The notes: generated by a model not told the origin, from the sequence alone. DNA of 64,000 bases from Elsinoe ampelina (GCA_010093995.1 ML992507.1:342463-406462), one strand, 5' to 3'. Shown: positions 668 through 26,112, numbered from the stretch's first letter. Numbers and translations are program-made.

Positions 668-694
668 CGTCACGAAATCTCTAAGCGTAGGGAG
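668..694 (+). repeat. Left TIR of giant element
   Basis: cgtcacgaaatctctaagcgtagggag; 22/27 identical to the reverse complement of 24446-24472. Confidence 0.85.
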
Positions 695-757
695 TTAGAA
701 TATTAGGTTTCCCCGCGTTAGACTAAGTTCAACTACGTTAGGTCGCTGTAAACGCAT

Positions 758-840
758 CCTACCCACCTGAATTCAGTTCAATGCACCCCTACCTACTTGA
801 ATTCAGTTTAACGTACTAAACCTACCTGAATTTAGTTAAA
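758..840 (+). repeat. Three ~30-bp subterminal tandem repeats with palindromic core CTGAATTCAG
   Basis: cctacccacctgaattcagttca / cctacctacttgaattcagttta / aaacctacctgaatttagttaa, spaced 30 nt apart. Confidence 0.75.
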
Positions 841-977
841 GGCGTTAGCGAGATTAAGCGTAGAAGCACTTTCGCGAGGGCATGAAAGTAGACATTTCCT
901 ACTTAGTTCTCTACCTTCCGACATAAGTAATAGACTAAACTAAAATGACCTTGTTTTATTATACTCTACTGTCTCTA

Positions 978-1560
978 CTCTACTACTAAGGGGCTCGGTG
1001 TTGTTAGCTATAAGTAGTTTCGTGCGACTATCTAGCTAGGGACTAAGCTTATTCGCAACGAGAAGTAGCTCTATATAGCTGTCGCCTATAAGTTCTGCTA
1101 CCTAGCAACTCGTATCGTTACTAGTGTAGAGGACCCTTACGGAGTAGTATTTCTAAGCTAGGGTCGTAAATGTAAAGTAGCGTTCCTAGAAAAGAAGTTT
1201 GTCGTAACAGCTAAGGCTAGGTATAAGATAGAGTACGTATACCTTTAGGTCTGTTCTAGCAGCCATTAGTCTATAGCGGTCACGTAGGAGAAGAACGACA
1301 ACGGAAGCTAGATATACTACGTTAACGGCGGCCGTAGTAGCGAGGTTAAGGCCTACTCTAAGAAGATCGACACTAATATAGACAGGTATAAGAGATGTAG
1401 TAGATATCTAGTTCAGGTTAAGCCGACTTCTTTTAGGTCGACTAACACCGACTAGTACACCTACTAGAAGACGCACTTTAGGGCCGCTAAAGAGCAGCTT
1501 AAGAAGCAAGGCCTAACAGATCTCGGTATACTCTCGGAGTAGCCTAGAAGGTAGTACTAG
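978..1560 (+). pseudogene. RIP'd cargo ORF remnant of unknown function (weak resemblance to Ulp1/C48-type H-W motif)
   Basis: One frame of ~190 codons in which all stops are TAG (RIP of CAG/TGG). Contains L*VCSSSH*SIAV. Confidence 0.4.
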
Positions 1561-2939
1561 GGACATCTACCCTCTATTAAGGGGAGCTGCCTTATCCTTA
1601 TACCGCCCCCTCGATTGCCTCGCTATACGATGTAGCTAGTAAGGAGGTAACTACTAATAACTATAGGCTCCTTCCCCTCCCTCTCCTTAATCTCCTCCTA
1701 GCTTAATACTAGCGTTAGCCCTCGCCTTGCCGGCCTATCCAGTGCTAGTTCCGGCAATCGGAGAAGTAAAGGAAGCGGCGCCCGGGTTAAGCTTACCGCC
1801 CTTAAATATAGTGCTATATATCGAAGACGAGGCCACCTCGAAGCGTACTAATCTCCCCGGCGTAACCCGCCGCGAGGTCGTACCTATAGTAGATAAGGCA
1901 GCAGTAGTAGCTTCCGCGGAGGACGTAGTAGTAGTAGCTTCGGCTACAGTGTACCTCCCTATAGTAGAGAGCGCGGATAAGAGTAGGGGGGAGGAGGGGA
2001 ATATCCCCTACGCGGAGGCGGGTATAACGACACTTTCTTTTACTATATCTCGCCGCTCTACTATAACTACTACTAAGTGGTAGTAGTAGTAGAGCTAGTA
2101 ATAGTACATATAAGGATAATCTAGTTTACAATCTTATAGATAGGATCTATTGCACATATTATGCACTAATAATCTTATAAGTAAATACTTACGATCTACG
2201 TAGATATAGAGAAGGCTTTAGAGGACAAGGAAGAGGCTACTTGCTATACTAACGAAGATAACGCCTAAGTTTTCTCTCCTTCTAGGCTTAAGCGGCTCTA
2301 TACCTGTGTCACGTAGCTACTTACAGTTATAGTTATATACTATGTTGTCCTCTACTCCCTAGAAGGCGTTAAGTAGGAACTCTCTAGCGTTGTTACTCTC
2401 TATAGGGGCAAGTCCTTCTTCGATAAGCTTCCCGTGGCTAGAATAGATATTAAAATTGATAAGTATCTTTCGGAGAGGGTCTTATAAGCTAGTCTCATCG
2501 GGGGACTTATAATAGAGAAGGAGTAAACCTCTTAGATCGCCGACCTAAGTCTGTCTACGAAACTAACCTAATAACTACTTATTTACCTATACTTTTCACC
2601 GCCGTTGCAAAATATATATAGGATACCTAAACTTCTTAAAGGCCAAGAGACATCTATAACGCCTCGCTATAATTTCCTAAGCTATCGTGATCGGTATAGG
2701 GGCAAACCGGCCCTTTAACAGGAGATTGTTATAAGGCGTCTTATGCCGCCTACTATATATAGTTCAGCGACTGACCTAATAACGTACAGGTGTAAACTAA
2801 CTAGCTAGAGTAATACCTACGGATGTTATCTTATCCTTTTTACCTAACATAGTTTAGTAGTCGACCTAAGCGTACCTAAGGCGAGGCGGTCGACGTAAGA
2901 GACGACTGTTCTAGCTACGGAAGGAGTGCTTAAGCTTCG

Positions 2940-5900
2940 TTAATGCCTCTTACGCTTGCTAACTGCGCCTAGGGATCTTAGCCTCTCTCGTTTAGAAGCC
3001 TTAGCTAGGTGGAGCTACTTAGACTCCTACGACTTATTCTATAGCATGTTATATGTGTTAAAGTCGGCTATGTTATTAATGTATATCCGGCTATTTAGCC
3101 TCGTCTTATCTACCGGTACGACGTAGATACTATAGTAGATTTGCAAAGTAGAGTAGACACGCCTACTAGCAAGTGCGTTCCGTCTAGCTCTATCGCGTCG
3201 ATTCGTCTAAGGCTTAATTAGTGTTATACTATACTCTCGATTAGCTACTCTATCCGGCCGAGTAGGCTAGTATAGATCTACTAGCGCTCCCGTGTAGTAT
3301 AGGCGTTAACGTCGACTCGATCTACTAGACTAGAAGCTATCCTCTATAGTTATTATAAATACAATTCGAGCTAGTAACTTACCTTAGAGGCTATCGGGTA
3401 ATGCTCCGACAGTGCCTTCGTTATTCGTTGTCTATTCTTACACCTAGAGCTAGTCTCGCCTCTTATTGCTATGTATCCCTTGCTATTTAGTTGTGCACCG
3501 GATAAAGTTTAGTTCGTCCGTATTAGGATTATTAGGATTATAGTTAGATAGCTTTCTACACTTTAAAGAACAGTAGAACTTAACGCAGAGGTCGCTAACC
3601 TAGGAAGAATCTAGTTCGAGTCTATCGGGATCTAGTTCGGCGTCGAACTAATTAGGGTATTCAGTTATTAAGCTAGAGCCTATATCGGCTATACCTTAAC
3701 GAGCCTCGCGGACAAACACCGCTATTACTTGCTGCAATAATAGCCTAGGTAGCATGTTAATAAGCGCCTCTAGTTCTCTAACTATACGCTATATAGCTCC
3801 CCCCTTAGTACTAGGCTAGCCGAACTAAGAAGTGACGTTAACTGTATCGCTTATACTAACCGGCGTACTCTAGATCTTAATTAGTTTAGTAGCCGATAGC
3901 CTAACTAACTTCGAGGGGTTATCGAATGCCGCTAATATGTTCGCTAGTTTAGTGTTATAAGTAGCAACCTAGTCTTCCTATCCGGCCTTCTTATTCGTAA
4001 GTTTAAAGGCGTCCTTAATAAAGCGGACATAGTTGTACTCTAAATGATTAGAATCGAGGCTAGTAACTACTCTAAAATTACAAATAGCCTTTAAAAAATG
4101 TGTTATTAAGTGCTATTTCGGAAAGTTAAAGTCACTCTCTTCTTTCCTATCGCTATAGTAGGCCTAGAAGGTCTCTTTATACTTGTTTATCCTAAAGAGC
4201 GCGAGGTTAATATACTAGAGTATGTCGTCGTCGTAGGTCTTATAGTTCGCTAGTAATATAAAGTCGACTAGTGCGCGTATAAATTTAATAGCTTAAGGCG
4301 CCTTAACCTCCTCGAGTAACGGCACGAATACTAGGAGCATCTAGCGCACGATACTCTTCTACTCTTAACCTGTCTATTACTTAACGGCCGAGTAGTATAG
4401 GAAGTGTCGAATGCCGGGAAACACTAGTATACTATCGAAGCGCTTGTCGATGATATTAAGCACAATCTCCTTTGCCGAGCGCTAGTAGCCTATTCGCTAC
4501 ATAGTCTCTCTAGCCCTTATATACCGCGGTGATTTGTGTGCAGGCATTAAATCCTAGAGCAATTTTCGAATCTAGCGTAGGACGTGCATTAAAACGCCTT
4601 TAAGAAGTTAGTACAGAATATCTAGCACTATCGCGTAGTAAATATTAGTACACGGAAGATCCTACGCAAAGCAACTAACCTTATAAACCTAAGAGCTCGT
4701 ATCTAGCTTTTCGCTCTACTACTAACTCTCGCGTGCCTCTCTCTATAAGCGCTATTGTCGCTACGTAGAGCGGTGAGTTCGGAACGGTATAGTGACTACT
4801 AGGTCCTCTCTCTCGTCTTTACCGATAAGGTAGCTTATATAATAATACAGTAACTTTACACCTATTATAGTAACCTATTCGGCGTAATTCGTAGGCATAG
4901 CAGCGAGTATAGGGAAGCACCTCCGCCTCTTTCTATCCGTATAGGAGATTGTTTCGCCCTCTCTCGAGTAGCAATTGACGACGGGGTTAAAGATTTTCTT
5001 TATGCAAGCGTAGTAGGTCTTCTCCTTAACGACATTCCTACTGTCTTTAATAATAGAAAGTAAGCCGATTAGTAACTACTCCGGCCGGTTATTGCTATTA
5101 CGTGCTTCTGCCTTTAGGTTGCCTAATAATAGATAGACGGCATGTGCTATAAGATCCCCTTAATGGTTTATTACCTAGGTCTAATTACTCGCGACGATTA
5201 ATGGGATAATAGTAGCTCTAGCTATCCTAAGTCGCTCTTATACGTCCTACTACTAGTCGCCGCTTGCTATTTCGGTGTATACTCGTCGTAGTAGCTTACT
5301 CTCGACAGCTTCTATAAAGACTCTATACGGGCTGTAGTCTATGTCTACTACGAAGCTACGATAACCGAGCAAGAAGCGTATCGCTAGGAGGATATCTAGA
5401 TGCCGAAACGTATGTCTTTTAGGCCTATAATTAGTATTCAGTGTAAAGCTCGAGGTCTGCTAGCCGTTAATGCCTCTAGCTGCATCTAAGTTTTCTATCT
5501 TCTCTACTAGTTTATTCGTAGTTCGCTAACTAAGGCTCTCTACTAGAGGTTATATACGTAGGTCTTTAAGTAATCGCGTGATTACGGCTTTACTAAGTTT
5601 TTCCTTAACAAGCCACTAGGTAAGACCGGCGTCTATACTATTAATAAAGGCTTCCTTTAGTTAAGTATCGCCTGACTAATTATGATTTAGTTCATTATAT
5701 GTGTCGATGTACATGTTATACACTTAAGGAGATCTAGACAACGTTAGTCGACGTAGACTAAGTATAAACTATATCTATTACTAACTCTTCGCTACTGGCC
5801 GGTATACTAGTAACCGTCTCGAACGTGATACGATCGGATATAGCCCTACTAGACGAGGACAATCTCCTAGCACTCCGCCCTATAGATGTACTACTAGTTA

Positions 5901-6480
5901 TGCTCGCTGTAATTACTTACTCTTTCTCGTGCGTACCTTCCCTTATAACCTCTTCTATGCCCTCCTCTTCCTCGTACGCGATGTGGCCGAGCCTACCGCT
6001 ACTATTGCTGTCTACTCTACGTGCTAGGGGATAATAGTCGAGGTCGGTAAAGAGACCGAGGGGATCGTCCGCTGTAGTATGCTATATAGTAGGCAAAGAG
6101 GGGAGGACACTCTACGCTAACTATAGACTATCGTCTCTACCTCGTTATTTAGTTCGGTTCTTAGTCCTTGTAGTTGGCGGCGGAGTTAAGTGGACTACTA
6201 GGTTATTTAGCGTCGGCGGATTATGCTAACTATTGCTGCTAATGCTACCTCGTTAGTCTTTATTAGATAGTAAGCGCTCTCCCCTATTAGAGAAGAGGGG
6301 GTTATTACTAGCGTCGTCTTCGCGGAGATATCTGTTAGTACGTTAATCTAGTAAGACTTGCGCCTTGTTGCTTATTAGTAGCTCTCTCCTCTAGCAATAC
6401 GGTAGATGTTAGACAAGGCCTCTACTAGATTGTATAATCTTTCCGCAGGCCGAGCATTTAGTAATACGCTTTAGTATGTT
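2940..6480 (-). pseudogene. Plavaka-family transposase (RIP'd), with N-terminal C2H2-like zinc finger
   Basis: Minus-strand translation in order: KCSACGKIIQSSRGLV*HLPYC; RVYTEIASGD***DV*; ATIIPLIVASN*T; AHAVYLLLGNL; RRCFPILAAMPTNYAE*; DILY*LLKGV; IDKRFDSILVFPGIRHF..**TG*E*K; FNFPK*HLITHF; FIRCTTK*; YINNIADFNTYN. These match the Plavaka motif series (TGDWWW, SDKT, CADGxxRRCFPILAAYIADYPEQ, PDxLHQLxKG, QWTGxE, FNxPKxH). Confidence 0.88.
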
Positions 6481-6686
6481 AGTTCTTATCGCTTAATATT
6501 TGCATTTATGGTTAGAATTAGTGCTTCGGATTTGTAACGACAGTAGGAAGTAAGACGTTTAGGCGCTACATTATGTTAGTTCACCTAAAAGATAGTTTAA
6601 CATACACTAGCACCTAAATCGGTCTACTAAACTAAGGAATCATATTCTCAGGTGATATAGTTAGGCTATTTATCTAGTAATATCAA

Positions 6687-9600
6687 TTATTTCTCTAGAT
6701 TAACCGCATCCTTCTTCGCTATAGCTCGCACGCGTGCCTATATCTCGGCCCTCTACTTCTCTATTTCTTCGTAGATAACTTTCTACACTATCAACGGCCT
6801 ACCCTATCTACTATTAAGCCACTCCTAAGGCCTATAGAATAGGGCTGTCGGCTTTATTATAAACGCCTCCGTGTAGTTAGCCTTCTAAGACTTAATATTC
6901 CTACAGACCTAGGCGAGATACTAGAGGACTAATCGTAGCACCGACGCTATATTAAGCAAGATTATAGTGTCGAAGCGGTTGAGGTTTAGACTAGTCTTAA
7001 TCGCCCTACCCTAAGCAATTAGGATCCTTAAACCTTCTAGCCTCGGGGGCTTAATAAACATGTCGTTAGATATAGCTACGTCGACGATGTCTATATAGGA
7101 AGGTATAGGTGTTATTCTATAGTAGATAACAACTACATTAGAATCCTTATCGATCCCGATTGCTTTACCGTCTAGGTACTACTCGAGCTATTTTAGATAC
7201 TGTGCCCTTGTTAGTAATGACCTAATTAGACTAAATAGTCTAAACTAACCGTCGTAGCGACTGCTAGCACTAAAGGTGTAAACGTATAGACGATTACTTG
7301 CCTCTTTAACTACTTCGAGTAGGAGACATTCTACTTAATAATCTCGGAAATAACACTATAAAGGACTTACATCTAAGGACTAGCGTGAATCTTGTCTATG
7401 TGCTACTATAACGCTGTCGCCGAGGAGTCACGTATAATATTATAGGCGTACTTAACAGTGTAGTCGCTAAACTCCTCTTTAACCGTAGGGCTATTCTAGA
7501 AGATATCTATAAGAGCGAGGAATATAGAGAAAAGCAGCAGCGGCGCGACTAGGCTTAGCATTTACTCCTTAGTCTTCTTGTTAAGAATCGTCTCTAATGT
7601 AACTTCGGACTTATTAGGTTTGTCCTTTTACTTCTCGATTGCCTCCTATATACTCTTATCTATATCCTTTTTGATCTTCTTCTATGTAGCTATAAGACTA
7701 TAAAGATACTTATTCTCGATAGTAATCTCTAGGTCGAATGTTAAATACGGTAGGACTCTAACTACTAGCAGACCGGGGGCAGTATCGAATAGTTTCTAGA
7801 CGTAGTCTACGTTTATCTTAATAAGAATTTCGGTGAGGATGCGGCCCTATTTAGTGACCGTTATAGAGATCTCTACTATAAACTCCGTACCCCCCTTTTT
7901 GTTAAACTTACTAGAGTTGTTATTCGCCTTATACTATTTGTCAATTACGTAGGTATAGTCCGATGCCTCTTAGAAGTTAAGCTTATTAGCGATAGCTCGT
8001 CGAGTAGCGTCTAGTCCTTTCTTTAGCCTTGCTTAAACTAGGTTGTCCTTAGACTTAGTTAGCTCCTAACTAGATTTATAGATGTAGGTGTTAATATATT
8101 GTCCTGTTCCTTTTCCATTTTTAAGCTTCTCTAACCTAAAGTCCTTATGTATAGTAGCCGTTAAGAACGCTACTACGTTTAAGCACTTAACAAATAGCGT
8201 TCCGCTTATGCCTAGTATAAAAGGCCTTCCTAGTAGCATTCCTAGACAGGACTAGGTCTACGTCTTCTAGCTAGTGACCTAGTGGAACTTATCGAAGATG
8301 ACGGCAGCCTAATAGATAGGGATAGCCCCCTTCTTCCTCTTAGCTCCCCTAGGAACAAAGTCCTAGTTATTAGTATCTACGTCGTCTTCGCCGAGGAAGT
8401 AGTTAATTATAGTGTTGCAAGTAGTAAAGAAGAACTAATTATTTATCTATGCTTTCTTAGGGTGCTTATTACGTATGTCGACGAGGTCTATAACTCTAAT
8501 AGTGTTAATAGGCTTACTAGTCTTTCGATCTTTTAGCTAAGTCTCCTATTTATAGTAGCCTTTAGGTAGATCCTCTTCGCGAACTAAAGAGTCTATGTTA
8601 TATACGTTGCTATACTCTATCTTTTGTACTTCTTTGTTTAAATTTCCCTAGTATAGGACGATCTTTGCCTTAGGCATAAACTTGCGTGTCTCTCGCGCCT
8701 ACTGTTTTATTACGTTTAATCCTCTAAGAATTAGATTATAGCTAATAGTATCGGTAGAACCAACGGTTAGCTATAGGTCGTCGACAAGTGTCGTTGCCTT
8801 CTAGTACTTACTCTATTGCTCCTCGGATATAGTAGCGTATCTACGATCCTTTAGCACCTCTTTATTTAAGAGTAAAAGGAGATAGAGCATAAAGAGGCCT
8901 ATCGGAGTCTTCCCGAATCCTATCTTATATGCGAACACAAATGCTAGGTAGCCTTCGAGGTACTTCTTAATTGCGACAAGCGCCGAGTACATCTATGCTA
9001 CCTCGACTAGATACTTCTTGTTCTAATACTAACAAAATACACTAGCGTTTAGTAAGTAAATGTCTTTCTTAAAGCCTATAAAGTCGTAGCCTCTTTCCTA
9101 GAACTCTTCGGACTAGTAATCGATTCTAGTACCTACGAGGATAAAGCTCTAGTAGGCTAGATCATTACTAGTTTGCTCGTCGTTATTGTCGTTAATAGTG
9201 TAAAGTTCGACGAAGTCCGAGCTACTAAGAGTCTCGTTGAACGTGCATTTTACTAGTGCTAGTATAGGTATAGATAGCTCCTTAGGGACTAGCGGAATGT
9301 AGTATCTAGCTAACTCTTTGCTTAGTATAACTATAAAGGGATATTTATCTATGTCTCGGCATTACTTGTAGTATTTGTCTTCTGTTACTCGAGTAGAGCG
9401 CTACTCGATAGTAGAATTATCGTCGGCTAGCAGTAGAGGGGTAATTCGCTTTTTAGGGGTAGAGTCACGTAGTGGTACGACCTTAGTCGGAGATAGAGGA
9501 GCTAGAGGATTATCTTCTTCTTTACCCTCGACTAGGGCTAATAGCTTCCAACTATTACAATACTAGAGGGGGTCGACTAAGTATATTAGTAAACACCCGA

Positions 9601-10665
9601 GTTAAACTAAGCGTTAAACTTATAAAGTACTTTAGTAGGAAGTTTCTTAACGAGATCCGTGCTAGGCGTAAGATAGAAGAAGATTAGGTTAGAACCTTCC
9701 GTTAGGGAGTTGACATAGTTAATAATAGCGGCACGTAGGTCGTAATTGTCGGTAATAGGGAGAATCTTATATAGCTCCGTATAGTCTATCTATACAAGTA
9801 TAATGTTATTGCTAATTAATTTTTTCTCCTTTAGAAATAGCCTAATTTCGTCGAGGCTATATGCATTTAGATCGTAAGTGTCCTTATCTCGTTGATAGTA
9901 CTATAGACTTAACGCCTATAGACGACGCAAACATTCTCTTTTTATAATCACGCCTAGACTAACGTCCGAATACTCGACGCTTATAAACTCGATAATAGTT
10001 TTGTCGATAATACTCTAAACTAGACGGGACGTGTCTTCTAGCATTTGCTACTAACGCATAGGCTAACTAGTGCGGCCATTAAGACCTATGCCCGCGAGTC
10101 CGCTACTAAGTATAGAAGTCTCTAATCTTTCGGAGAGTCCGCTATTAGACTAGGTAGCGGAGTGGCGCTTTCTAATCTACTTCTTAGGATATGCTCTCTC
10201 GTCTACTTCGGTCTAGTTCTTCTCGTTCCTAAGCTCTTACGCCTTAATGCTAAGGACGAAATCCTTGATAATATTACGGCCGGATATATCGTTTATAACG
10301 CTAACGTTCTTCTTAAACTAGTCTTAATCTTAACAGTTTAGTCTCCCGAAGAAGATCTTCGTATAGCCTTACTAAGGGTCCTATAGGTTGTTCTTAATAT
10401 TGATTATAATCGTAGCTATATTAGCGTTACTAGTCTAAGGTTCCTTGTAATCTAATTCGAAAGACGTGCAGGTATCCTTGTATAGTTCCTATGCCCTTAC
10501 GCATGCGGCGGTGTATATGTCGTCGTCCTAGTTAAAGAATTCGAGGAAGAATGCCTTAAGCTTAATGTTCTAATCGAGCTATACTTAAATATCTATAGGA
10601 GATCTCTCGTAGAGCGGAATTTCGCTTGTAGCCTAGCTAGCGCTATTAGGCTAATTCTTAGACAT
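6687..10665 (-). pseudogene. SNF2-family (SF2) helicase/ATPase, copy A (RIP'd)
   Basis: AYKIGFGKT (de-RIP AHEMGFGKT, motif I, ~8900-8935); VIFDKFH (DEFH, motif II, ~8285-8305); ILGISGTL (SGTP, motif III, ~8200); TSLNL..TIILL (GLNL, motif V, ~6960-6995); *YLA*VCR (motif VI). ATG at 10665; probable intron near 9580-9630. Confidence 0.8.
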
Positions 10666-11484
10666 ATTACGTGCGTTTGTAAGCTTAGTATGTGCTGTAA
10701 ATAAGGCTTTAAATAATGTCTAGTAAATAGATCGAGTAGGTGCGATAGATGTTAAGTAAGAGATCTCGTAAAGGTGTAGCGTATTTATAAGTTTAGAAGA
10801 ATTAAGGAGAGGATTTATTAACGTAGTAGGTCTATACACTTTGTGATATATGTCTAACTAAGACTTAACTAAAAGAAGAGATATCCTATTTAAGAGCACT
10901 TAAAATAGAGGTTAAAGAGGTTAAAGAAGTGCTAAAGAACTACATGAGTTACTTATTTATAGCTAAGAGAGAGTAAACAAAGATAAACGATAGCGATAAG
11001 TAAGAAGAGTAGTAACCTAAATTTAGTCGATTTAGGTCGGGCCCCGAACTAAGTACGTAGGTAGTATACTAGATGCGGCATATACGTGACAGTAGATAAC
11101 TTAGTTTAGACACTAAACTAATAGTAACTATAGTCCGTGCACTTAGTCACCTTTCGTTTTATATAATGTGTAAACTAAGGATGCTACTATCGTTATTAGG
11201 CACTTAACGTAAATAGATTAAACTGTATTTTGGCAGCGGAACTGAATTCGTATACGAGGCACAAATAGAATGTAATTAGATAGTATATAGCGGAATAAGG
11301 GACATAGTATAGCTTATAGACGCTAGCAAAGGAATAAAGAAAGTTATATACTACTATCTAATTGTCTAAACTTTACGATTGCTGTATATAGAGCTAAGGG
11401 GCAGAGTAGAGCAATAGCTATACATTCCGCGTAATAAGCAATTAATAGTACATTCCACAAAATTACACATGCGCTTTATTCCTC

Positions 11485-12420
11485 GCCTAGCCCCGCTATA
11501 GAGGCAACGGCGAAGGAGGACGCTATAGGTATAGCTCCGCCTAAGACGCCTTCTACTATAAGCTTATAGCTCGAAGGAGGTAGTAGGCGTACCCTTACCT
11601 ACGATATGCTTCTATATTTCCCCCTTTGTTACACCGGTTGTAACTCTACTATCCTGTCCTAAACATTCTTGTCTTATAAGGCGGGCACTCCCTAGTAGAC
11701 ACCTTCTCCTCTATCCTCTTCGTATACGCTAGAACCCCTAATAGCGTAGTCAGCAGCGTAGAAGGGCGCTCTACGATAGATTCGTTTAGTCGTAGCTACT
11801 AGGCGGAGACAGTATTAGATTCTACCGATACTACGCGGCTAGTATAGAGGATACTATAGAGGAAGGTAGAGACGGCGAAAAGGAGAGAGCTATCGAAATC
11901 TCCTACGTACGTAGAAGTCTATATCGGCGCGGTCGGCAAGACAGGGAGGTATATTAATATAGCTTTACTTAGGTATAACTACTAGGTGGAGACGTTGTTT
12001 AATCCTACTAATACTACGCTACCGGTGTAGAGGATACAGTAGGGGGCGGTAGTAACGTCGAGAGGGAAGAAGGTGTCGAGGTCTCCCTACGCACGCTTAG
12101 GTCTATAGCGGCGTAGTCGGTATAATAGAGAGGTACACTAGAACAGATTTGCTTAGGTGTAACTACAAGGTAGAGACGTTATTTAATCCTACTAACACTA
12201 CGCTACCGGTATAGAGGATACTAATAGAGGCGGCAGCGGCAGCGAGAGAGGAGTCGATATTTAAGTCGTTATTGTAGATACGACAACGGATAATTGTAGT
12301 GCACTAGGCGGGGGCGTCGCTATAATAGCTAGCCGGCTATTGTCGAGCTCGGATAGAGAGGAGAGCGAAGGTTACGCTAGTAACGCTAACGCCTACGTTT
12401 AGGTTAGTATAGGCGGAGGA
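11485..12420. repeat. ~0.95 kb segment (copy 1) containing three ~183-184 bp tandem units
   Basis: Unit marker gagac..taatcctact..actacg at 11806, 11989 and 12173. Direct copy at 18730-19680. Confidence 0.85.
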
Positions 12421-13560: not shown

Positions 13561-14118
13561 GACGGATTATAGCTAAAATTGTGTCCTCGCTATAGTACTA
13601 GACCCGTTACGACAGGGTTTACTCTAGTGCATCTATACGATAGGGATTATTAACTAGCTTTCCGCTAATAACGATATTAGCTAATGTGTTTAATTAGCTA
13701 TTGTCGCGCTATTATACTTAGCCGAGACTATTATAGCAATTATAGAGCAGAAGTGCTACGTAGGCCCTATTATTCTAGCTAGTAAATAATTTATAGTTCT
13801 TACTATATTATGTCTCGACTTGTCGCCGGTAGTATATTAAGTCGGTTGTAAATAGCCTCTACTAACAGAGAGTAAAAGGGGTAGGTAAACCTGTTTCGGC
13901 CGCGTAACGTTAGGTAGTTTATGCCTTTTAGGGGTAGGCGATTAGTTCGCTAAACTAAAACTTCAAATTTTAGGTGAAAAGTAGTACTAGGTTTCCTGTA
14001 ACTATATTTAACAAGGGTGAACTAATAAAATAACCTTCGGTGATTCACTTTTTAGTTTAAACGACTATGCTTAGTTCGATTGTCTACTTTGCTATATTAT
14101 TATATATAATATTCTATA

Positions 14119-17100
14119 TTATTGTCGGTGTACCGTAGGTACTATTAAGCTACTTCTTCGACCGCGAGGATAGAGTAGTCGGTTTAAGCGTAAATACATC
14201 TTTCGTATCTACGTAGGCAGATGTTATATTCTCTACCGACTGTCGAAGGCCTAATAAATAGATCTATAAACCGAATCCCTATCGAGCAAGATTATAGTGT
14301 TAAGGCGGGAGCACTATTGCTCTATTTATATTACCGGACTAAGCGTAATCTAAAGTTGCGAACTAACTAGTGTAACCTCCTCGAAGTAAAATTAGTTAGA
14401 CATAGCTACTTCGATAATGTCTAGGCGTTTCTCTGTTAGCGTCTTTCTATAGTAGACTATAACGACTTTAGCGCCCTCGTCGATCCCGATTACTTAGCTT
14501 CTTAGGAGTCTCTCGAGGCATCCCTAATACTCTACTCTAGTTAGTAATAACCGAACTAGACTATATAGGTCGAACTAACTATCGTAGCTACTACTAGCAC
14601 TATAGTCGTACGTACATAGACGATGATTTGCTACTTTATAGTCTTTAACTCGCGGATGTTCTATTCTATAATCTTAGGAATAATGACACGAAGGACCTAT
14701 ATTCCTAAGCTAGTATAGTGCTAGCATACATGCTTGTTTATCGCTTCTACCCTAGGTACATTTCGAAGAGAGCCTATAGAGCAATTGTCGAAGTTCCCGA
14801 GCCCTTCTATAATGTTAGCGGATTATGTAGTTCCTTCTACACTAGCGGGGCGAATAGGTAAAGGAAGTAAGCTTATAACGACATCTAGCGTTTGCACTAC
14901 TAAATTCTTTTTACTCTCTAAACAGATTATATCCTCGGACTACTCTTTCTTGTGCTACGTCTCTATAACTATAGTTTATGTACTTGCTCTTATACGCGGA
15001 GCGATTCGTGTCTATAGTGCCACTAAAGAAATAAGATGTTCGTCCTCGATTAAAACTTTAGAGTTAGAGTTAGAAATATCTCGTACCTAATAAGCCTCGG
15101 AAGTAGGCGTAGCCGCTAGATGTTTCGCAATTAGGTTAAATTACATCGCGAGAGGAATGTTTAAAAGTCTAGCCACCTATATAGGGACCAAAGCGAAGAT
15201 TTCGAACTAGAAGTAGAAAGCGGCTATCCCGTTTACGAAAAGGGGGCCCCGATAGGCTCTAGCTATCCTTGTATCACTATCGCATATATAGAGAGCTGCC
15301 TCTCGTTATATTACACAGTAATCTCGAGTTAAATCGTGTCTAGTTTATCCTCTCTTATTTCCTCCGATAGGTACGTCTTCGCCGTCCGTAGCTAGAGGAC
15401 AGCTTCTACTATGTCGAAGCTGCCGTCGTTAACTAGCGGGCGTTTATATCTATTCCCTCGGGCTAATTAACCTTATACCGAATGTCAAGCTTAATACTAT
15501 TTCTACGTATACGGTTAGTAGAGCTATACTAATACCGAGTAGCGATTGCCTAACGGGGAGAGGCATAAGACAGTAGGGCGTTAGGGTGTTTCTCTAGAGG
15601 ACTTATTCGGCCTAATATAGAATGAATCTGTCCCTAGCTTAAGGCTAATTAAACTAAGTTAAGTTCGTAGTTAGTAGGGGAGGCGCGGCCTAACCTAAAG
15701 CGACTCTACTATTTGTTAGGAGGTGGTAGCTAGCACTAATAATAGTCGACAAGGACTCTGTACTATAATTGATTTCCAAGTATACTATGTGTAAATCTCG
15801 CTAGTACTCGAGAGTGTAAAATATTAATAACATCGGTAGTAACGCCTCGGCGCTCCTTAACGGCACTATACTATTGTTATTTAATTTAGTTAACGCTAAG
15901 TTTAGTATAGACTAAGTCTCGTACAATTGCTCCTAGTATTACTAGAGGAAGAGATCCTATTCTACTAACTTGTCCTACTTATTATTAAATGCCCTTATCT
16001 GTTAAAAGTACTATAACATTGCTCGGTCTCCCTTATCGATAATATAAAGGAGATAATCTCCTCCTCGATATCGATGTTATAGTAGTTAGTGCCCCGTAGT
16101 ATAATATTCTCGGATTTGCTCTCTCTACTCGCTTGTGTCGTAGCGTGCCTAACGGGATATAGGAAGTTACTAGTTCGGAAGTAGAAGCTAGGAGAGACAT
16201 TAGAGAGCTCCGAGAGATTATGTTCGTCTAGATCAATAGCCGACCACAGGTGTACGATAGCTTCTAAGGTATCCTTAAAGTTATAAAAGTAGTATAAGTA
16301 TAGGCGATGCCTTAGTAGCCGACGCTACGTTCTAAACTAGCTATGTTCTTATAGCGAGAAAGTAGGGACTGTATTCTCTTAAGCTATATAAACTATAACT
16401 CTATCCTAGACTAAGTTACTAGGTCGATTAAGATTTGTCGAACTGTAGTTAGAGGACTATTAAGCAAATTTACCTCCGATGACGACGATAGGGATATCGT
16501 AGGCTTTATAGGGGCCGTAGTCCCTTAGGGGCAGAATAAACTAAGAGAACTTTATTAGTTAAGAACTGAACTGTTTCGTAAATAATACAATAGCAAATGA
16601 AACATAACAATATTACTGCTCTTGCCTTTAGCGTTTTTGTCGCTATCGTGTGTATTATGCATCTAGTATCTCGATGTACTCTCTATGTTTCTCTCTATAC
16701 TAATCTCCTTTACGCTCTTTTTCCGTGCTAATGTCTGCGAAGCGAAGCTTCTTAGGAGTAGTAAGCACTTCCGAGTTCTCTTCTATACTAGTCTTAACAA
16801 TAGGAGATGCTTACTAACTACTACGATATTAATAAGAGTTGTCTATAAGTGTTAGTATATATAGACGAACAGTAAAGAGGTTAACTTACTTCGTATAAAG
16901 TTAGGAAGGTCTTTAATAGATACTGTAGAAGGGGTAAGATAGAGAAAGATCTCGTAGGTACTAGGGACGAGGGCTATAATATACTTAGTGATAGTAGCGT
17001 CTAGATCGAAAGAGTCTTTAATAGCGAAGACCTATATAGAGTTATATAGATCGATCTAGTAGAGGCGGAGGAAATTACCTTTAAGATTAAGGATCTGCCT

Positions 17101-17949
17101 AAGTATACTTATAAAGTACATAATGCAATAATTATTGTCCTTGCCGGGACTAGGCAACCTTAAGTCGTGGACGCGAATATTCTTTCTCGATGTTAGGTAC
17201 GAGACAGATTCCGTTTCGATGACCTCTATAATCTAGATTATAGTAAATTCGATATCGATCTAGATACGATTAGACGCTAACGCCTAGTTAAAGCTTAAGA
17301 CTCTATAATAAGGCTATGTATGTAAGTCTAATCTCCTGTCGCCTGTCTTTATATAAGCGGTACGTCTCTCCGAGGACGGTGTTCTTACTTTAGAGAGTAT
17401 TAGCATTTACGCGGACGAGGTAGCCGAAGGATGTAGACTCTAGGTGCCTCCTCCGCCTAGTAAGGTTATCCTTTCCCTTTTAAGCGACGGTGGAATACCT
17501 AACCTTATTAATTACATAACATTTCGGAGTAATCGCTATATAGCCTTTATCTCGTTAATACTACTTACAGTCCGCAAGTTCTCTATAAACTAGTCTAGAT
17601 CTTTCCGATCTAGTCGGTTAACAAAGAGCTTTATATCCTGTGCCGTACTACCTAGTAGGTTAGTCTTAACTTTAAGGCGTGCATTAAGTATATTCTTATC
17701 GCGTAAACCTCTCCTGTCTTGTTTCTCGATTTTAATACTATAATTAGTAAAGACTTTTAAGATTATTTCCTTTATCCTCGCGAACGCGGTCTAGTACTCC
17801 TAGTCGTCCTATTTAAAGAAGAATTAGAGAGATTTCTTACTAACATTGTTCTCTATAAGCGCATTCTTAACGATAGCTAGAGTAAGTTCGTTAAGCAGAA
17901 TCTTTTCTATAGGTCCGAGCGTATTAGTTAACTTCTTCGTTTTCGGCAT
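14119..17949 (-). pseudogene. Diverged SNF2-like paralogue, copy B (RIP'd, motifs degenerate, possibly split near 16610)
   Basis: Colinear homology with copy A at the N-terminus (FFFK*DD*EY*TA vs FFN*DDDIYTA) and in the helicase-C region (14482-14630 vs 7152-7300). Canonical intron GTAAGT..CTAAC..TAG at ~16845-16890. RPTVLCLSPLG replaces RPFILGMSGTP. Confidence 0.65.
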
Positions 17950-18729
17950 AGTGCTAATATGTATATTTAATGTTTGTAAGAATATCGACTAGTAGAGACG
18001 CCGTGTAGAATAGGTAAACTTAGAGAGGTCGAGATTATATAGCTAGGAGCTAAGGATAGTAAGGTGAGTGCTATAGAGCAATCGGCGGTGATAATACGTA
18101 CCTGTTATCCGATATAGATTTAAAATGCTAAGTGGAAAGTAAATAACAAGTTCTTTAATTAGGTAAAGGTTATGTCTAATGTGATATACCGAAGTAGATA
18201 GTTAAATTTGTAACTGAAAACTAGTTCGGGCCTCGACCTAAAGTGAACTAAGTTAATAGAGTCTATGTTTCGCATGTACTAATCGTGGCATATAATAGTA
18301 AGTAGTATTAGTTCGATGCTAGAACTAAAAGGAACTAAGTTAGTTCACGACTAACAAATCTTACGCGGCGTAAATTAGGTAAGCAAACAAAATGTATCTA
18401 ACTAAAGGTACGTAGTTAGCTGTGCCGAAGGCTTATATATCTCTCCCGTGTATGTTAGCGCTTTACGTAGAGTTATATATATCTAGAACATTTAGCAGAT
18501 ATATTAACAAAGAGTAGCATTGTGTAAAGCGACAATCTAAATGTCTTTATAGCGGACAACAGACAAAACGAACACTAAGGAACAAAGAGACGTATACTAT
18601 ACTTAGATACGGTAGATAAGGAGATTTTATTACTAGTTAGAGAAGGCGAATTAAAGTAATAAGCGTACAGTCCGCGTAGAAAGAAATACATTACTAACGC
18701 TAGAGAGTCACAACAATGCGCTATTAATA

Positions 18730-19680
18730 ACCTAGGCCCGCTATAAAGGCAACGGCGAAGGAGGACGTAGCTAGTATAGCTCCGCCTACGATGCCTTCTA
18801 CTGTAAGCTTATATCTAGTAGGAGGTAGTAGACGTAGCCTTACCTACGACGCGCCTCTATCCCTCCCCCTTTGTTACACTAGTTGTGACTCTACTAACCT
18901 CTCCTAAACATTCTCGTCTTATAAGGCAGGCAATCCCTAGTAGACGCCTCCTTCTCTATCCTCTTTGTATACGCTAGAACCCCTAATAGCGTAGTCGGTA
19001 GCGTAGGCGGACGCTCTATAATAGATTCGGTTAGTTGTAGCTACTAGGCAGAGACGGTATTAGATTTCACCGATACTACGCGGCCGGTATAGAGGATGCT
19101 ATAGAGGAAGGTAGAGACAGCGAAAGGGAGGGAGCTATTAAAATCTCCTACGTACGTAGAAGCCTATATCGGCGCAGTCGGCAAGATAGAGAGGTATATT
19201 AACATAGCTTTACTTAGGTATAACTACTAGGTAGAGACGGTGTTTAATCCTACTAACACTACGCTGTCAGTGTAGAGGATGCTATAGGGGGCAGTAGTAA
19301 CGTCGAGAGGGGAGGAGGTGTCGAGGTCTCCCTATATATACTTAGGCGCGCGGCGGCGTAGTCGGCATAATAGAGAGGTACACTACAACAGATTTGCTTA
19401 GGTGTAACTACTAGGAGGAGACGGTGTTTAATCCTACTAATACTACGCTACCAGTATAGAGGATACTAATAGAGGCAGTAGCGGCGGCGAGAGAAGAGTC
19501 GATATTAACGTCGCTATTATAGATACAACAATAGATGATTATAGTACACTAGGCAGAGGCGTCGCTTTAATAGATAGTTAGCTATTGTCGAGGTTAGATA
19601 GAGGGGAGAGCATAGGTTACGCTAGTAACGCTAACGTCTACAATTAGGTTAGTGTAGGTAGAGAGTACAAACTAAGGCGT
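18730..19680. repeat. ~0.95 kb segment (copy 2) with three ~183-184 bp tandem units
   Basis: Direct copy of 11485-12420 (offset ~7245). Unit markers at 19051, 19234 and 19418. Confidence 0.85.
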
Positions 19681-19974
19681 CATTGTGTATTGTATATGCG
19701 GTGTAGCTCTATCGCTGCGGATCGAGCATACGATATAAATGTAGGGAGATAGAGTTAGGTACGTCGAACTTTAAAATTTTGCGAGTTTTAGTTTAGGCTA
19801 ACTAATTATAACTAAGTAATACTTAGGCATGTGCCCCTTGCAAACTAAGACTTACGACTTCTAAGGCTAATCTATCTCGAGCGACACTCCTACCTAACTA
19901 CTAACTATACCGCTGCTTTCCTCTTCTCTCTTCGCTCTCCTCGGCTGCACTCGTATCTGCTTCTTATTAACTAG

Positions 19975-20790
19975 CGATATACTCGATCGAAGCTATTAAG
20001 CGAGCCCTCGCCCTCGACGACAAAGGCTATAGAGACTTATATAGTCTCTTAGAGGATATTATAGTAAGTAAAGGCATAGTTAGAAGAACATTTAGGTCGA
20101 TTTCTAATAGGAGAAGGCTAGAGAAGGAGGTGCTTCTAGCGGCACTAGATAGTAATAACATCCGATGTACGTTTCGGCATACGATAGAGCTATTAGAGAG
20201 CGGCGACGGTTAAGCTGCCTTCCGTGCTCTCGTCTACAAGATAAGTACGAACTTTAGACGTCGGCAGGTATAGTTACACTTAAGATTATATAAGCCTAGA
20301 GGGACATAGAACAATGCTAATACGCCTGCCTCGATTAAATCCTCGGATTGCTAATTGCAATTATAAGCGCCTTCGCTCTCTAATCGATTAAACGATATAC
20401 TGTTAGTAGTTCGTAAGGATAGAGAGATACGCTCTATCTGCTCGATTAGAGATCTCTTACTTACACGTCGCAAAGCTATAGCTAACGTGTCTAAAGAGGA
20501 CGTAGATATCGAGTTCGATTAGCTAAGAGTAATATCGATTATAACGGACCACTATATGTACAATAGGCAAAGCGATATAATAGGGTAGAAGGACGATAGA
20601 ACGCTACATTTCGCTACGATAGAGAATGCTATTTAGTTTAAGGCTATTATCTTGTCTAAGATATTACACAGTTCGCCCCTATATATCCTAATAAGGCGAC
20701 GAGATTAAGGGAAGCATCCGGCGGAGACAAGCATAAAGTATAATAGTCTAGTGGTAGACTAAGTCGAACTAAAACGTAGTAGGTAAGCCT
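19975..20790 (+). pseudogene. RIP'd cargo ORF remnant, ~270 codons, unknown function
   Basis: Long protein-like frame (IYSIEAIKRALALDDKGYRDLYSLLEDII...) broken only by RIP-type stops. Confidence 0.5.
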
Positions 20791-20899
20791 CGCTAAGCCG
20801 TACCTACTACTAAACCCCGAGGATTTAGTTCAACTAGCACGCTTTATCCTTCCTTACCTTCTAACTAGATCGACCTATAGAATTATTCGTACAAGCTAT

Positions 20900-21640
20900 C
20901 TTTCTATAATTAATTTATTCAGTCTAGTAGTATTCTTATACAAGGCTCCTAAGTATAGATATTAACTACACCGACCTTGTTTCTTTAGCAGCTAATATCT
21001 AGACTACAGAATTAAGCACGTAGGCTTCTCTTATTTGTTTAGGTGTAGAAGTATAGTCTTTCAACAGTTTGCCTAACTAGTCCGGGCCTTAGCTTAGAAG
21101 CTCTCTACTAGACACGTAAGGAGAAGAGTACAATTACGTTAGTAGCTAGTAAAAGTAACGTAGGACTCGGTGGCCTAAACAGCTCAATAGATAGTAACTC
21201 TTAGAGGAAGACATTACACTTATGTAGTAGGAGGTAGGCCGATTACGAATAATAACGGAGGAAAACGCTAGCGTAATTAGACAACTATAGCGAGAGAACT
21301 TTATACTTAGGGAGCACATTAGCAAAGCTTTTCGGGGGTTTAGCGTCGCCTCTACGGACCTTACTAGGGAGTTTAGGGGCTTATTTAGATTAGACAAGAG
21401 TATACGGCGCTATACTAACAGTGCTACTCTACTATTACTAAGTATAGTCACCGACAGCTAATTGACGCCCGCCCCTCGTAGCGACATAATTAGTAGACGA
21501 CAAGTATCTCCGTCTAGCGTACTCTATTCGGACACACCGGACTACAAGGTAGAGAGCAATTAGTACTTTTAATACTTAGAAGACGTTCTACTCGGCAAAG
21601 GGGGGGCTACTAGCGTAATTAGTAAGGGAGCCATAGTATG
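20900..21640 (+). pseudogene. RIP'd cargo ORF with basic region plus leucine-zipper/coiled coil (bZIP-like)
   Basis: YNYVSS**K*RRTRWPKQLNR**LLEEDITLM**EVGRLRIITEENASVIRQL*RENFILREHI at ~21120-21320. Confidence 0.45.
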
Positions 21641-22125
21641 AATCGTGCCACCTATCTACATATAGAAGGGCTAATACCTATAGTCTCTCGAATTAGTTTA
21701 TAATTACTTAGTATAGGTTTAATCTACGATTTCTCTCTGCGATATTCTACCCCTAGTATTGCTTAACGTAACTACGAATACCTTATTTAGTTTAAGTATT
21801 TAGTCTAAGTAAGTTCGAGCATCTTTCTTTTTTAGTTTAGGTTCTAATAATTGGCACGCCGCGAGTTAGAACTAGCTACAAGTTCAATTTAATACCCTTA
21901 CTAGTCACAATTTTCGTAGGGTATAGGCGGGTGTAACTAGATTTAATTAGAAGAAAGTCGCGTACTCTAAACACCAAACTAAGCCGTTATCTAACTTAAA
22001 CTAACACTAAGTTACTATAACTCGTATAAGACGACTATTCCCGTTATAGTATACATTGTTAGGGCCCGTCGTGCTAAACTCTCTTACACCTGTATACCTC
22101 TTAACTAGAACGATTAGGATAAGTA

Positions 22126-24050
22126 ATGTCCTAGTTACGTCGGCGTCGGTATAGCTTAGGCTACGAGGCTAATAATTATTACAAAGACGACAATTTAAGT
22201 TAGGTAGACTAGGACGAAGAAGAGTATAGCTTTATTAGTAAGGAGGGCTAGGCTAACTACGTAGGCCGTAAACATAATATTAAAGACAAAGGAGAAGGTA
22301 TAGATCGGACATTACTACGCTCGATTCAAGATTAAGGGAGCTATAAGCCGATAAGAATAGCCTAGCGTTAGCCTCTATGCCGGTTCGGTTAGTAAAACGA
22401 CATTCATAGGACGTACTAAACGAGTATAGCGACATCTTCGTAGCGGTGCGAGACGAATTACGTGTAAGTACAGCTATTAGGTAGGATTGTAATACGATGT
22501 TACTAACGTTAAGTAATCGATAGCTTCTCGCGCGAATTACAAGGCACTAGCGCTCGATCCGTAAGTAGCTACTAGTGGCTTATCTATAGAGGACAATAGG
22601 CGAATACCCTTCCGCGATTATAGCTAGTAAAGTATGTTACTTGCTAAAGTTAATCACTTGCTAATAACGTCTAGCTCCGAGAGACGCTCCGCTACGGTCG
22701 TAACAATATTACACGATCGGTAAGTAAGATACTCTAGTGCGAATAGCTTGCATAAGAGCTAGAGGATAGCGAGCTACCGAATTAGGCACGCAAGCTACTA
22801 GAGGAACGAATGTATTAATGCAAGGACGGCGATCTAGTACGCGATAGATGTACTTATCGATTAACTACTAACGTATAGTAGCGGAAACGCTTTAGAAGTC
22901 CTTTAATATATAAAGCCTTCCGAGTAGCCTTTGTCGGACGTAGAGGCTTAGCTATAATAGATAGCACTCGCTATTACTTCTAGGAACCGACACTCTTTCT
23001 TGTCTTCTCCCTCCTAGCGACGATTTATATACTCTTAGTTAAGCGAGTAGACGGTGTTAAGTCCTACTTACCTAAGGGAGTAGTAGTGTTCTATCGCATT
23101 AAACCCTTAGAACTCGATTATGTCCGACTAAGCATTTAAAATGACTTCCTCGCGTAGATTAGCTAGAGACAAGCTCTTATTTTTCGTTAGCTAAAGCTTA
23201 GCTTTACCGAGTATGTCGAGAAGAATAGGCTCACCGTTATCGTAGTAGTATCGAACATCTCCCTTTACGCTACTACTATAGAAGGGTTATTAGATAAGGA
23301 GGATACACGCTAAAGGTACGTAGATACCTTCCTATTTTAGTTCGGTCTACTTAAATTCGAACTGACCTATAGAGAAGTTACGTACTTAAGGGCGGACCTA
23401 ATCGCGAAGGGGATAGCTATAACGTAGCGCCGGCACGTAATACTCCTACTGAGTAGCTAGTACAAGGTAGGCTTAATCGTCCTATCGGCTTTTTAGTCTT
23501 AACACAAATAGATAGAGAAGAGCGTTAAGCTAATAACGAACACTCAATCGCTGTACATTAAGGTACTACTTAGTTCGCATATAGAAACGGAGTGCTAAAA
23601 CACTATATAGCTACTCCTATAGCACGAGCGCAACCGGCGTAAGTGCCTAACATAGATAACAACCTCGCCGTAACTGCGACTATAACTACGACTACTCCTA
23701 AACTAGGTTAGGTCGCAGTTAGAGCACACAAGGAGGATTAATAGACTCGTCGACGACATCCTTACAGGCCACTTAATTATACGCGTACTATACCGTCCTA
23801 AGAACCTAATAGCGATTTACTAATAATAGAGGCACGGTGGAAGGATTTCTTAAACACACGGACATAGACGAATTTTTTGTCCTTTGTACGTAAGGAGTTC
23901 GGAGGCTTATTGCGCAAACTAGTGTTATAGTACCGAATAGCCTAGAGGCGTAGTAGCGGTAGCTTAGTAATAGAAGGGGATAGAGGACTACTAGATAGAG
24001 ATACTTTCCTAGAACTAATAAGAAGGGACATTGGATCGCAAGTAGATAAT
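22126..24050 (+). pseudogene. RIP'd intron-containing cargo gene; middle resembles DUF6532-type proteins
   Basis: ATG at 22126, acidic N-terminus, intron-like GTAAGT/GTATGT..CTAA..TAG segments at ~22464-22523 and ~22632-22674. RFRSPLIYKAFRVAF..YF*EPTLFLVFSLLATIYILLVKRVDG resembles the remembered DUF6532 consensus; unverified. Confidence 0.45.
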
Positions 24051-24445
24051 ACATATATTGTTATTAAGAGAAGTATTACGTAGAACGTTAAGTAATATAT
24101 ATACACTCTCGATAATCTCGCATCCTTACTAGACGTAATAGATAGTTAATAAGGCTTTATGTGTTTTATAGACATACGTAATACATACTACAAGGTAGGC
24201 AGTCTAAAATCGAGCTAATCGCCTTTATAACAACGAACTAATAGATCTGCGAACTGAGAGACACCCTAACTAAGACGAACTAATGCGTCGGGATGCGCTA
24301 TACACTATCGCATTTTACGTGTGCTACGTTTAGTAGGTTCTTGCAAAAAAAAATGCGTTGCTTCTAAGTAGGACCTAGGGGTGACTAGGGAATTGCATCG
24401 AACTAAATCGGACTAAGTTAGTTGCTTAGAAGTAGTCTAATGTAG

Positions 24446-24472
24446 CTCCCTAGCGTTAGGGATTTCGTAACG
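24446..24472 (-). repeat. Right TIR of giant element
   Basis: ctccctagcgttagggatttcgtaacg; its reverse complement matches 668-694. Confidence 0.85.
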
Positions 24473-24479
24473 TTATTAT

Positions 24480-25777: not shown

Positions 25778-26112
25778 AGTAAGAAGGTGAAAGTGTTATA
25801 TAAAAGAAAAGGCTACTACTATAAGTGTAATAAAGGAAAGAGAAATCATAAAGAGGCTAGTTAGATACTTATATCTCTTTAATTAAGACTTATAAGCTAG
25901 TCTATTTACATAAACAATAGCTGCCTAGCTATTGTTAATAGTTACTATTATTGCTAGCAATTATAAGCTAAACTAATAGTAAATTCTCACTAATGATTAG
26001 CTAACACTAACAATTATAAGCAATTATAAAGAGATAAAGTGATAAGCTAATCACTTTACTTACATGTGATAGGACAGTTCTCTAGCTCTAGCAATCTATA
26101 CTAGAGGGGGAG

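Follow-up and report, generated by a model that had tools for sequence, protein, structure and literature searches.

A precisely bounded Plavaka-family transposon copy of unusual length, inactivated by repeat-induced point mutation, in Elsinoe ampelina

Introduction

Plavaka transposons have been grouped with EnSpm, Mirage, Chapaev and Transib in the CMCT clade (PMC12730594), most elements of which are reported to have CA..TG ends. In Agaricomycotina, PlavakaA is described as having TGT..ACA ends and duplicating 2 bp of its target, PlavakaB as having CATCA..TGATG ends and duplicating 2-3 bp (Kojima 2025, PMC12730594); Plavaka elements carrying TET/JBP are reported from Agaricales (PMC12730594), and those of the ascomycete Tuber (truffle) are described with a 2-bp duplication and CATAC ends (PMC12581995). 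Here we analyse a stretch of 64,000 nucleotides from Elsinoe ampelina (GCA_010093995.1, ML992507.1:342463-406462; hereafter the window), in which a block of 23,805 bp (668-24472) interrupts a copia retrotransposon. We read this block, with a probability of roughly three in four, as a single insertion of an autonomous Plavaka-family (CMCT clade) transposon into the 3' untranslated part of a copia element in a filamentous ascomycete. The insertion is exact, and the copy is inactivated by repeat-induced point mutation (RIP), of unusual length and without demonstrable cargo.

Large members of the family have precedents. In the red alga Bostrychia moritziana, giant Plavaka elements of 17.4-19.1 kb are described that carry the accessory genes PAG1-3 and tandem repeats and of which most copies are degenerate; PAG2 is given as an N6-adenine methylase (PF01555) joined to a SET domain (PF00856), and Chondrus crispus is mentioned in the same preprint (bioRxiv 10.1101/2025.02.11.637652). 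The idea of a giant Plavaka carrying accessory genes is thus not new (bioRxiv 10.1101/2025.02.11.637652), and giant Plavaka elements as well as the 2-bp duplication are already published. In those parts of the literature on Plavaka and on giant CACTA-type cargo transposons of fungi that were available to us, no giant Plavaka is described from Ascomycota.

Judged by its Pfam profile and best protein hits, the E. ampelina element appears to belong to Plavaka: it matches PF18759, has terminal inverted repeats at its boundaries and is flanked by a 2-bp duplication. With fungal Plavaka it shares PF18759 over the full profile, the cut-and-paste structure bounded by terminal inverted repeats and the 2-bp target duplication, as well as an N-terminal zinc finger like that of two long relatives (P0010 and P0016) and alignable C(2)C and H(3)H positions. 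It differs in its size of 23.8 kb (~16.5 kb without a second unit described below; published lengths of the fungal families are not part of this comparison), in the ~18 kb that lie upstream of the transposase gene, and in its host, a RIP-proficient filamentous ascomycete, the nearest named relative of the transposase coming from a Dothideomycete. The red-algal giants have in common with it a Plavaka transposase, a size class of ~17-24 kb, internal tandem repeats and mostly degenerate copies, whereas the fungal host, inactivation by RIP and the partial second unit are particular to the present element.

Two further systems invite comparison. En/Spm (CACTA) elements likewise encode a DDE transposase of the same wider clade, combine terminal inverted repeats with subterminal repeats and may become large, but here the duplication is 2 bp rather than 3 bp, the ends lack CACTA and there is no recognisable second gene of the TnpA kind. 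Internally rearranged derivatives are common among CACTA elements. Starships share the host group, Pezizomycotina, and a length of 23.8 kb falls near the low end of their size range; in contrast to them, the present element has a DDE transposase, short terminal inverted repeats, a 2-bp duplication and no recognisable cargo.

Results

Exact ends and an empty target site

The block begins with a left terminal inverted repeat at 668-697 (plus strand), reading 5'-CGTCACGAAATC..., and closes with a right one at 24443-24472 (minus strand). The two are identical at 24 of 30 positions and at 27 of 30 if C/T differences are allowed, the first 17 bases being alike but for two C/T differences, which are the kind of change that RIP makes. 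When 3,000,000 inverted pairs of 30-mers were sampled at random from 1-26000, none reached 24 identities (best, 21). The terminal 500-bp stretches, compared locally in inverted orientation, scored 71; shuffled sequence gave 44.3 +/- 7.1, with 1 of 200 shuffles reaching 71. A degenerate 17-letter motif of the ends occurs at these two sites only in the 64 kb; a third site, 10757-10773, has three mismatches, and we rejected it as an internal right end, its surroundings scoring 39-46 against 43 +/- 7 for shuffles. Just inside the left end lies a subterminal tandem repeat (761-837, plus strand; 30-bp unit, 2.6 copies, GAATTC core; Tandem Repeats Finder). The subterminal motif has three occurrences at the left end and none at the right, and these 30-bp repeats are candidate transposase-binding sites.

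Both outer sides of the block carry TT (666-667 and 24473-24474). Reads from one sample, in two public runs (X1 and X2, containing 0.61 and 0.47 of the sampled words), allowed us to compare this with uninterrupted copia copies, run contigs being aligned to window positions 1-20000 at at least 85% likeness. One contig of X1 crosses base 667 and continues for 20 letters, and two contigs of X2 do so for 9 letters; the 20-letter continuation has a single occurrence in the window, at 24475-24494. Uninterrupted copies hence read ...GTTTT and then directly 24475 onward, and because these empty-site contigs pass from 667 straight to 24475, the TT at 24473-24474 is additional. That copia is collinear across the block, and that a 2-bp TT target duplication accompanies the insertion, is thereby established. 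The original prediction, made from the DNA alone, had named the inverted termini at 668 and 24472, the insertion inside a copia element and TT as a possible target duplication, and it is borne out on each of these points; the collinearity of copia across 667/24473, whose absence would have counted against it, holds as well.

The interrupted element comprises a left part at 1-667 (plus strand), in which the polyprotein ends and the 3' untranslated part follows as far as the insertion site, and a remainder at 24475-26254 (plus strand), which holds the rest of the 3' region, a polypurine tract (26103-26112) and, directly after it, the 3' long terminal repeat (LTR; 26113-26254). A second copia copy occupies 59333-64000 (plus strand), with its 5' LTR at 59333-59474. 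Positions 1-626 of the left part are 97% identical to 63375-64000, a stretch just downstream of an RVT_2 match (PF07727, 62735-63193, E 2.6e-11) that was the sole match among nine frame translations. The LTRs of the two elements are 142 bp long with TG...CA ends and are 96% identical. Since RVT_2 lies just upstream of the second-copy match and the TG...CA LTRs are shared, both elements can be assigned to Ty1/copia, of which RVT_2, TG...CA LTRs and a polypurine tract before the 3' LTR are all present. The window ends 41 bp before the second copy reaches the equivalent of the insertion site, and because of this that copy cannot itself be aligned across the junction; the collinearity stated above comes from run contigs.

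Three observations on copia stand apart from the insertion. The two copies are 97% alike though both have ~25% GC; with the summed depth on 1-667 given below, this points to a very abundant family, and its copies may have converged by saturating RIP. From the apparent end of the polyprotein to the 3' LTR there are ~1.8 kb, which is long for copia. Two runs of N in the second copy (60949-61312 and 61909-62734) explain part of the very low GC at 60-64 kb.

A Plavaka transposase broken by point mutation

The block was scanned against Pfam in six frames, with X at stops, over 601-24602 in four overlapping pieces, giving 24 translations, at E <= 0.01. Two families emerged, PF18759 (Plavaka) and a zinc finger below its cut-off. 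The Plavaka match (E 2e-35; 123 bits against a cut-off of 26.3) covers positions 5-322 of a 325-position profile at ~4578-5516, within a transposase pseudogene that we place, with tblastn, at 2970-6470 (minus strand). A protein search with the frame 2736-5795, read through its stops as X, gave two matches among 8000 proteins scored, P0001 (E 1.2e-154) and P0002 (E 5e-127), the latter a hypothetical protein of the Dothideomycete Polychaeton citri; both carry PF18759. By tblastn, residues 31-815 of P0001 are collinear with the block in one unbroken frame, and no second transposase body was found in the window with P0001 as query. The presence of a complete Plavaka transposase, anticipated in the original prediction, is therefore confirmed by profile and by collinear alignment alike.

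Longer relatives (P0003, residues 3-888; P0004, residues 17-954) extend the match to 5654-5660. Another one, P0010, places a CxxC...HxxxC zinc-finger remnant at 6394-6459 (minus strand; P0010 residues 5-26) in another frame, a weak match (tblastn E 0.15) at which Pfam gives zf-C2HC5 at E 0.007 (~6360-6510). The sole frame change lies upstream of the catalytic body, in the interval 6394-5660, where either an intron or an indel could account for it. The body itself has no frameshift, and it is broken by point mutation, not by deletion: there are 69 stops in the 1020 codons of 2736-5795, and compared with P0001 there are stops in place of W, N in place of D in the first catalytic motif, Y in place of C in the C(2)C motif and Y in place of H. 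At the catalytic positions of this alignment the first D reads N and both C read Y, while the second D, the H..H and the E are kept. These changes are of the RIP type, and the ancestral transposase therefore probably had the full set of Plavaka catalytic motifs. The surrounding protein family is large, with 3438 clusters at E <= 1e-3 and 379 at E <= 1e-30.

An intact relative without RIP was seen in a metagenome contig (L006, 1-19722), where an apparent intron splits the transposase into 9380-10456 and 10565-12367. Its neighbours are fragments of an SNF2-type helicase upstream and, downstream, a 1307-residue AAA_11/AAA_12 helicase with a CCHC knuckle, and 17-bp inverted repeats lie ~9.3 kb apart around the transposase.

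RIP and repetition along the block

RIP has affected the block throughout. Its TpA/ApT index is 1.94 and its (CpA+TpG)/(ApC+GpT) index 0.40, with ranges of 1.74-2.31 and 0.33-0.49 among sub-blocks, compared with 0.58 and 1.31 in neighbouring genes; the left copia part (1-667; GC 0.25) has indices of 1.75 and 0.33. In the read sample, 4612 contigs of X1 and 3212 of X2 aligned to 1-20000 and covered 30 of 30 bins. By identity, the X1 contigs fall into 1163 at 99% or more, 1078 at 95-99%, 1551 at 90-95% and 820 below 90%. Transitions make up 1614 of the 1649 changed places in X1 (C>T 599, G>A 662, A>G 193, T>C 160): copies of the family differ almost only by transitions, which is the work of RIP.

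All of 668-20000 is multi-copy in the sample: exact single-copy contigs have a depth of ~160-200, and the bins are 4-60 times as deep. For the transposase core the summed contig depth is 9000-11,600; for the first middle region and the second unit (both described below) it is 1900-5100 and 800-4500, and for the first 1.3 kb 800-1700. Copia 1-667 reaches ~84,000, against ~180 for single-copy contigs. Such sums are not copy numbers, and we therefore use them only to show that every part is repeated. That RIP extends over the whole block and that the family is multi-copy, as had been proposed, is thus upheld, the latter in the sense that all bins of 668-20000 are repeated, which does not imply that the other copies match this one in ends or length.

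A partial second unit of the same family

Comparison of the block with itself revealed direct repeats at an offset of 7.25-7.35 kb. We distinguish a block A1 (5727-6243, minus strand), which is a 5' coding part of the transposase gene; a middle region M1 (6244-11283; 5040 bp), which is multi-copy (10-28 times the single-copy depth) and contains no recognisable gene and no Pfam match; and a block B1 (11284-12518) with about three 184-bp internal repeats (~11790-12320). These are followed by a second copy of the transposase fragment, A2 (13075-13589, minus strand), a middle region M2 (13590-18537; 4948 bp) that likewise has no Pfam match, and B2 (18538-19763), and finally by a right arm (19764-24442) that holds no recognisable gene and a long protein-like plus-strand frame at 19920-24101.

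The 517-bp fragment A1 is 83% identical to A2, with 78 transitions against 5 transversions. Recoding into purines and pyrimidines is informative here because RIP cannot change such a coding; it renders the A copies 100% identical over 404 bp (5772-6175), and the core of B1 and B2, which are 86% identical as DNA, 97-100% identical. The left boundary of A is sharp and lies inside the transposase gene, and A2 has neither the catalytic body nor the zinc finger. M1 and M2 can be aligned only in patches (6745-7729 and ~9541-9765), being elsewhere no better than noise. Reversal of RIP from the two copies of block B yielded no long open reading frame (ORF). Two contigs at single-copy depth switch between units at homologous points (6607 to 13941 and 19610 to 12383), and mosaic single-unit relatives therefore exist elsewhere in the sample.

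The block is accordingly composed of one full unit and a partial second unit (13075-19763) with a different variant in its middle, and ~7.3 kb, about a third of its length, is a partial second unit of its own family rather than cargo. There are no further direct or inverted repeats in purine/pyrimidine coding that would mark LTR or terminal-inverted-repeat elements nested inside the block, and none of the 24 frame translations contains a reverse transcriptase, integrase or second transposase domain.

Search for cargo genes

Outside the transposase and its sub-threshold zinc finger, no Pfam family was matched in the 24 translations. This includes the tyrosine recombinase of Starship captains (DUF3435), Transposase_21 (PF02992), the PAG2-type domains PF01555 and PF00856, and TET_JBP or other 2OG-oxygenases; PAG1 and PAG3 have no Pfam model and fall outside such a scan. 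No tRNA genes were found in the block. Two long protein-like frames exist, at 7040-9535 (minus strand) in M1 and at 19920-24101 (plus strand) in the right arm. Neither had a homologue at E <= 0.01, in searches that scored only proteins of 0.55-1.75 times the query length sharing 5-residue words with it. Stop-codon density was rejected as a gene finder, as it does not discriminate: the real transposase itself contains the 69 stops given above. The frames of M1, compared with M2 by tblastn, matched in all six frames alike and therefore reflect homology of the DNA, not conservation of coding sequence.

Neighbourhoods of related transposases offered another approach. Among 603 candidate stretches of metagenome contigs, 559 held transposase relatives, of which the best 80 loci were kept. 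Their 2938 ORFs of at least 80 residues gave 98 matches to the element, 97 of them inside the transposase. The lone match outside is marginal (19980-20264, to an ORF of L006; 28% over 95 residues, E 5e-5); the ORF concerned has no Pfam family, and a reciprocal search found nothing. No conserved neighbour genes emerged; the SNF2 and AAA_11/AAA_12 helicases beside the L006 transposase were not seen in the element, and the inverted repeats of the 80 loci could not be reliably defined.

The original prediction had placed at least six other ORF remnants and a multi-gene cargo in the block. Neither is supported: no second gene was recovered by Pfam, by two homology searches or from the 80 related neighbourhoods. 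Recognisable cargo is absent, whereas DNA this heavily mutated could still hold cargo beyond recognition.

The setting of the block

Three compartments make up the window: an AT-rich block of the RIP type (1-26254), a gene region at 26.3-53 kb, and AT-rich sequence again from 53.5 kb to the end. The gene region has 53% GC, and 6 of its 10 ORFs match Pfam families, among them coatomer beta, RIC1, a GH3 glycosidase and a PNP_UDP/NB-ARC/TPR protein, an architecture typical of filamentous ascomycetes. The last of these is an intact ORF of 1286 residues (46874-50731, minus strand) with an NLR-like architecture of the fungal kind and tandem repeats inside it at 47148-47496. Intact ORFs of 647, 275 and 358 residues adjoin the repeat islands at 27255-30015 (minus strand) and 57947-59020 (plus strand), without any Pfam family. 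Another AT-rich, RIP-like island (54064-57582; GC 0.26-0.33) is flanked by inverted repeats of ~135 bp (54064-54198 and 57448-57582) that are 77% alike; six-frame translation of 53501-59301 gave no Pfam match in it. The island may be another degraded element with terminal inverted repeats, its sequence being unrelated to the Plavaka block.

Discussion

Our findings show that the insertion at 668-24472 is exact, with inverted ends of 27-30 bp and a 2-bp TT duplication, and that it contains one full-length transposase gene, whose reading frame was intact until C>T and G>A mutation destroyed it. Its size is not explained by recognisable cargo, the ~18 kb upstream of the transposase gene being without detectable coding capacity. 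How might such an element have arisen and moved? We envision a scenario whereby the transposase would bind the terminal repeats together with the subterminal 30-bp repeats, excise the element and insert it into a staggered 2-bp cut, and whereby the family would first be amplified and its copies then inactivated by RIP. The second unit might be a chimera of two family variants, arising either from ectopic recombination or from a template switch in the course of gap repair; the single-unit form would be ~16.5 kb long. Of the giant cargo-carrying DDE element that had originally been predicted, what stands is a single insertion of a Plavaka-family DDE transposon, bounded by terminal inverted repeats and a 2-bp duplication and distinct from Starships in that no frame contains a tyrosine recombinase or any second domain; the cargo is not supported.

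Several points weigh against this reading. The ends, 5'-CGTCAC...GTRACG-3', correspond to none of the described TGT..ACA, CATCA..TGATG or CATAC termini: the right end reads ...GTAACG, and the CAC of the left end begins only at the fourth base. The terminal motif is also absent beside the 80 related metagenome transposases. Membership in Plavaka nevertheless stands, because terminal motifs define sub-lineages and not the family. The empty site comes from paralogous copia copies rather than from the allelic site, and a run of six T in this particular copia copy, with a blunt insertion, would be a conceivable, if formal, alternative to the duplication. Both runs stem from one sample, probably the source of the assembly, and hence do not constitute independent evidence. 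From one part of the element to another, depth (not to be read as copy number) differs 14-fold (~800 to 11,600), and this could mean that parts of the element also occur as separate repeats; read coverage spans 1-20000, with the right 4.5 kb (20001-24472) lying outside it. The origin of the second unit is something that we infer, an unsuccessful search for genes in RIP-mutated DNA says little about their absence, and the two long protein-like frames (7040-9535 and 19920-24101) are there to be accounted for.

Conceivably, there was no insertion at all, and it is by chance that inverted ends and TT coincide with the edge of a RIP-mutated repeat island. A plain scan of 1-27000 indeed gives 186 inverted-repeat pairs of at least 20 nt, with the present pair outside the 25 longest, and TT is common in AT-rich DNA. 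The junctions, however, are fixed independently by the empty-site contigs, the 24 of 30 match falls at exactly those two bases and was equalled by none of the random pairs, and a complete Plavaka transposase lies inside; together these refute a chance origin, to which we attach next to no probability. Alternatively, an ordinary or moderate Plavaka insertion may have been enlarged later, by ectopic recombination with family copies and by unrecognised nested repeats, such that the 23.8 kb never transposed as one unit. The 14-fold difference in depth between the transposase core (~9000-11,600) and the ends (800-1700) or the second unit (800-4500) fits this view, as do the sharp breakpoint within the transposase gene at which the second unit begins, the failure of M2 to align to M1, and the contigs that join sequence resembling the first unit to sequence resembling the second at a homologous point and so attest single-unit mosaics. 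What such growth in place would have to contend with is the lack of internal copies of the terminal repeats, the sole candidate (10757-10773, three mismatches) having surroundings unlike those of the true ends, the lack of LTR or inverted-repeat pairs and of foreign transposon domains inside, and a uniform intensity of RIP, which implies that all parts were duplicated sequence when RIP acted. We regard this scenario as possible, yet doubtful.

We consider it rather unlikely that the block is a giant cargo carrier, that is, an element of 16-24 kb with several accessory genes, comparable to the red-algal PAG cassette or the TET/JBP of Agaricus, which RIP has since obscured. The ends and the target duplication do enclose the whole block, the interior is multi-copy along with the transposase, and no nested retroelement or foreign transposase accounts for the length; the two long frames and the marginal match of 19980-20264 to an ORF located 7 kb upstream of the L006 transposase point the same way, and the red-algal elements (17.4-19.1 kb), which carry tandem repeats and three accessory genes, provide a model (bioRxiv 10.1101/2025.02.11.637652). 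Yet the transposase, though equally mutated by RIP, is still recognised at 2e-35 and 1e-154, whereas nothing else reaches E 0.01 in the 24 frames. Neither candidate frame has a homologue within the limits of length and shared words set for those searches, 97 of the 98 ORF matches from the 80 loci fall inside the transposase, the reciprocal search returned none, M1 and M2 match equally in six frames, as DNA rather than as coding sequence, and PF01555, PF00856 and TET_JBP are unmatched. More speculative still, and in our view improbable, is the proposal that the block is a relic of a giant (16-24 kb) Plavaka lineage of Pezizomycotina with its own terminal motif, whose 18-kb arm once encoded conserved accessory proteins of undescribed families and in which M1 and M2 were alternative cassettes.

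As a single Plavaka-family insertion, the locus represents a cleanly bounded member of this family from a RIP-proficient ascomycete, for which exact ends, target duplication and empty site are all available, and it extends a family known mostly from mushrooms, truffles and red algae. Its new terminal motif could be used for annotating relatives, and the present copy is useful mainly for repeat annotation and for studies of RIP. Its length poses the question of whether fungal DDE transposons, like Starships, become large carriers. Should a hidden set of accessory genes prove to be real, RIP-proficient fungi would have, in this lineage, a counterpart to Starships that is built on a DDE transposase.

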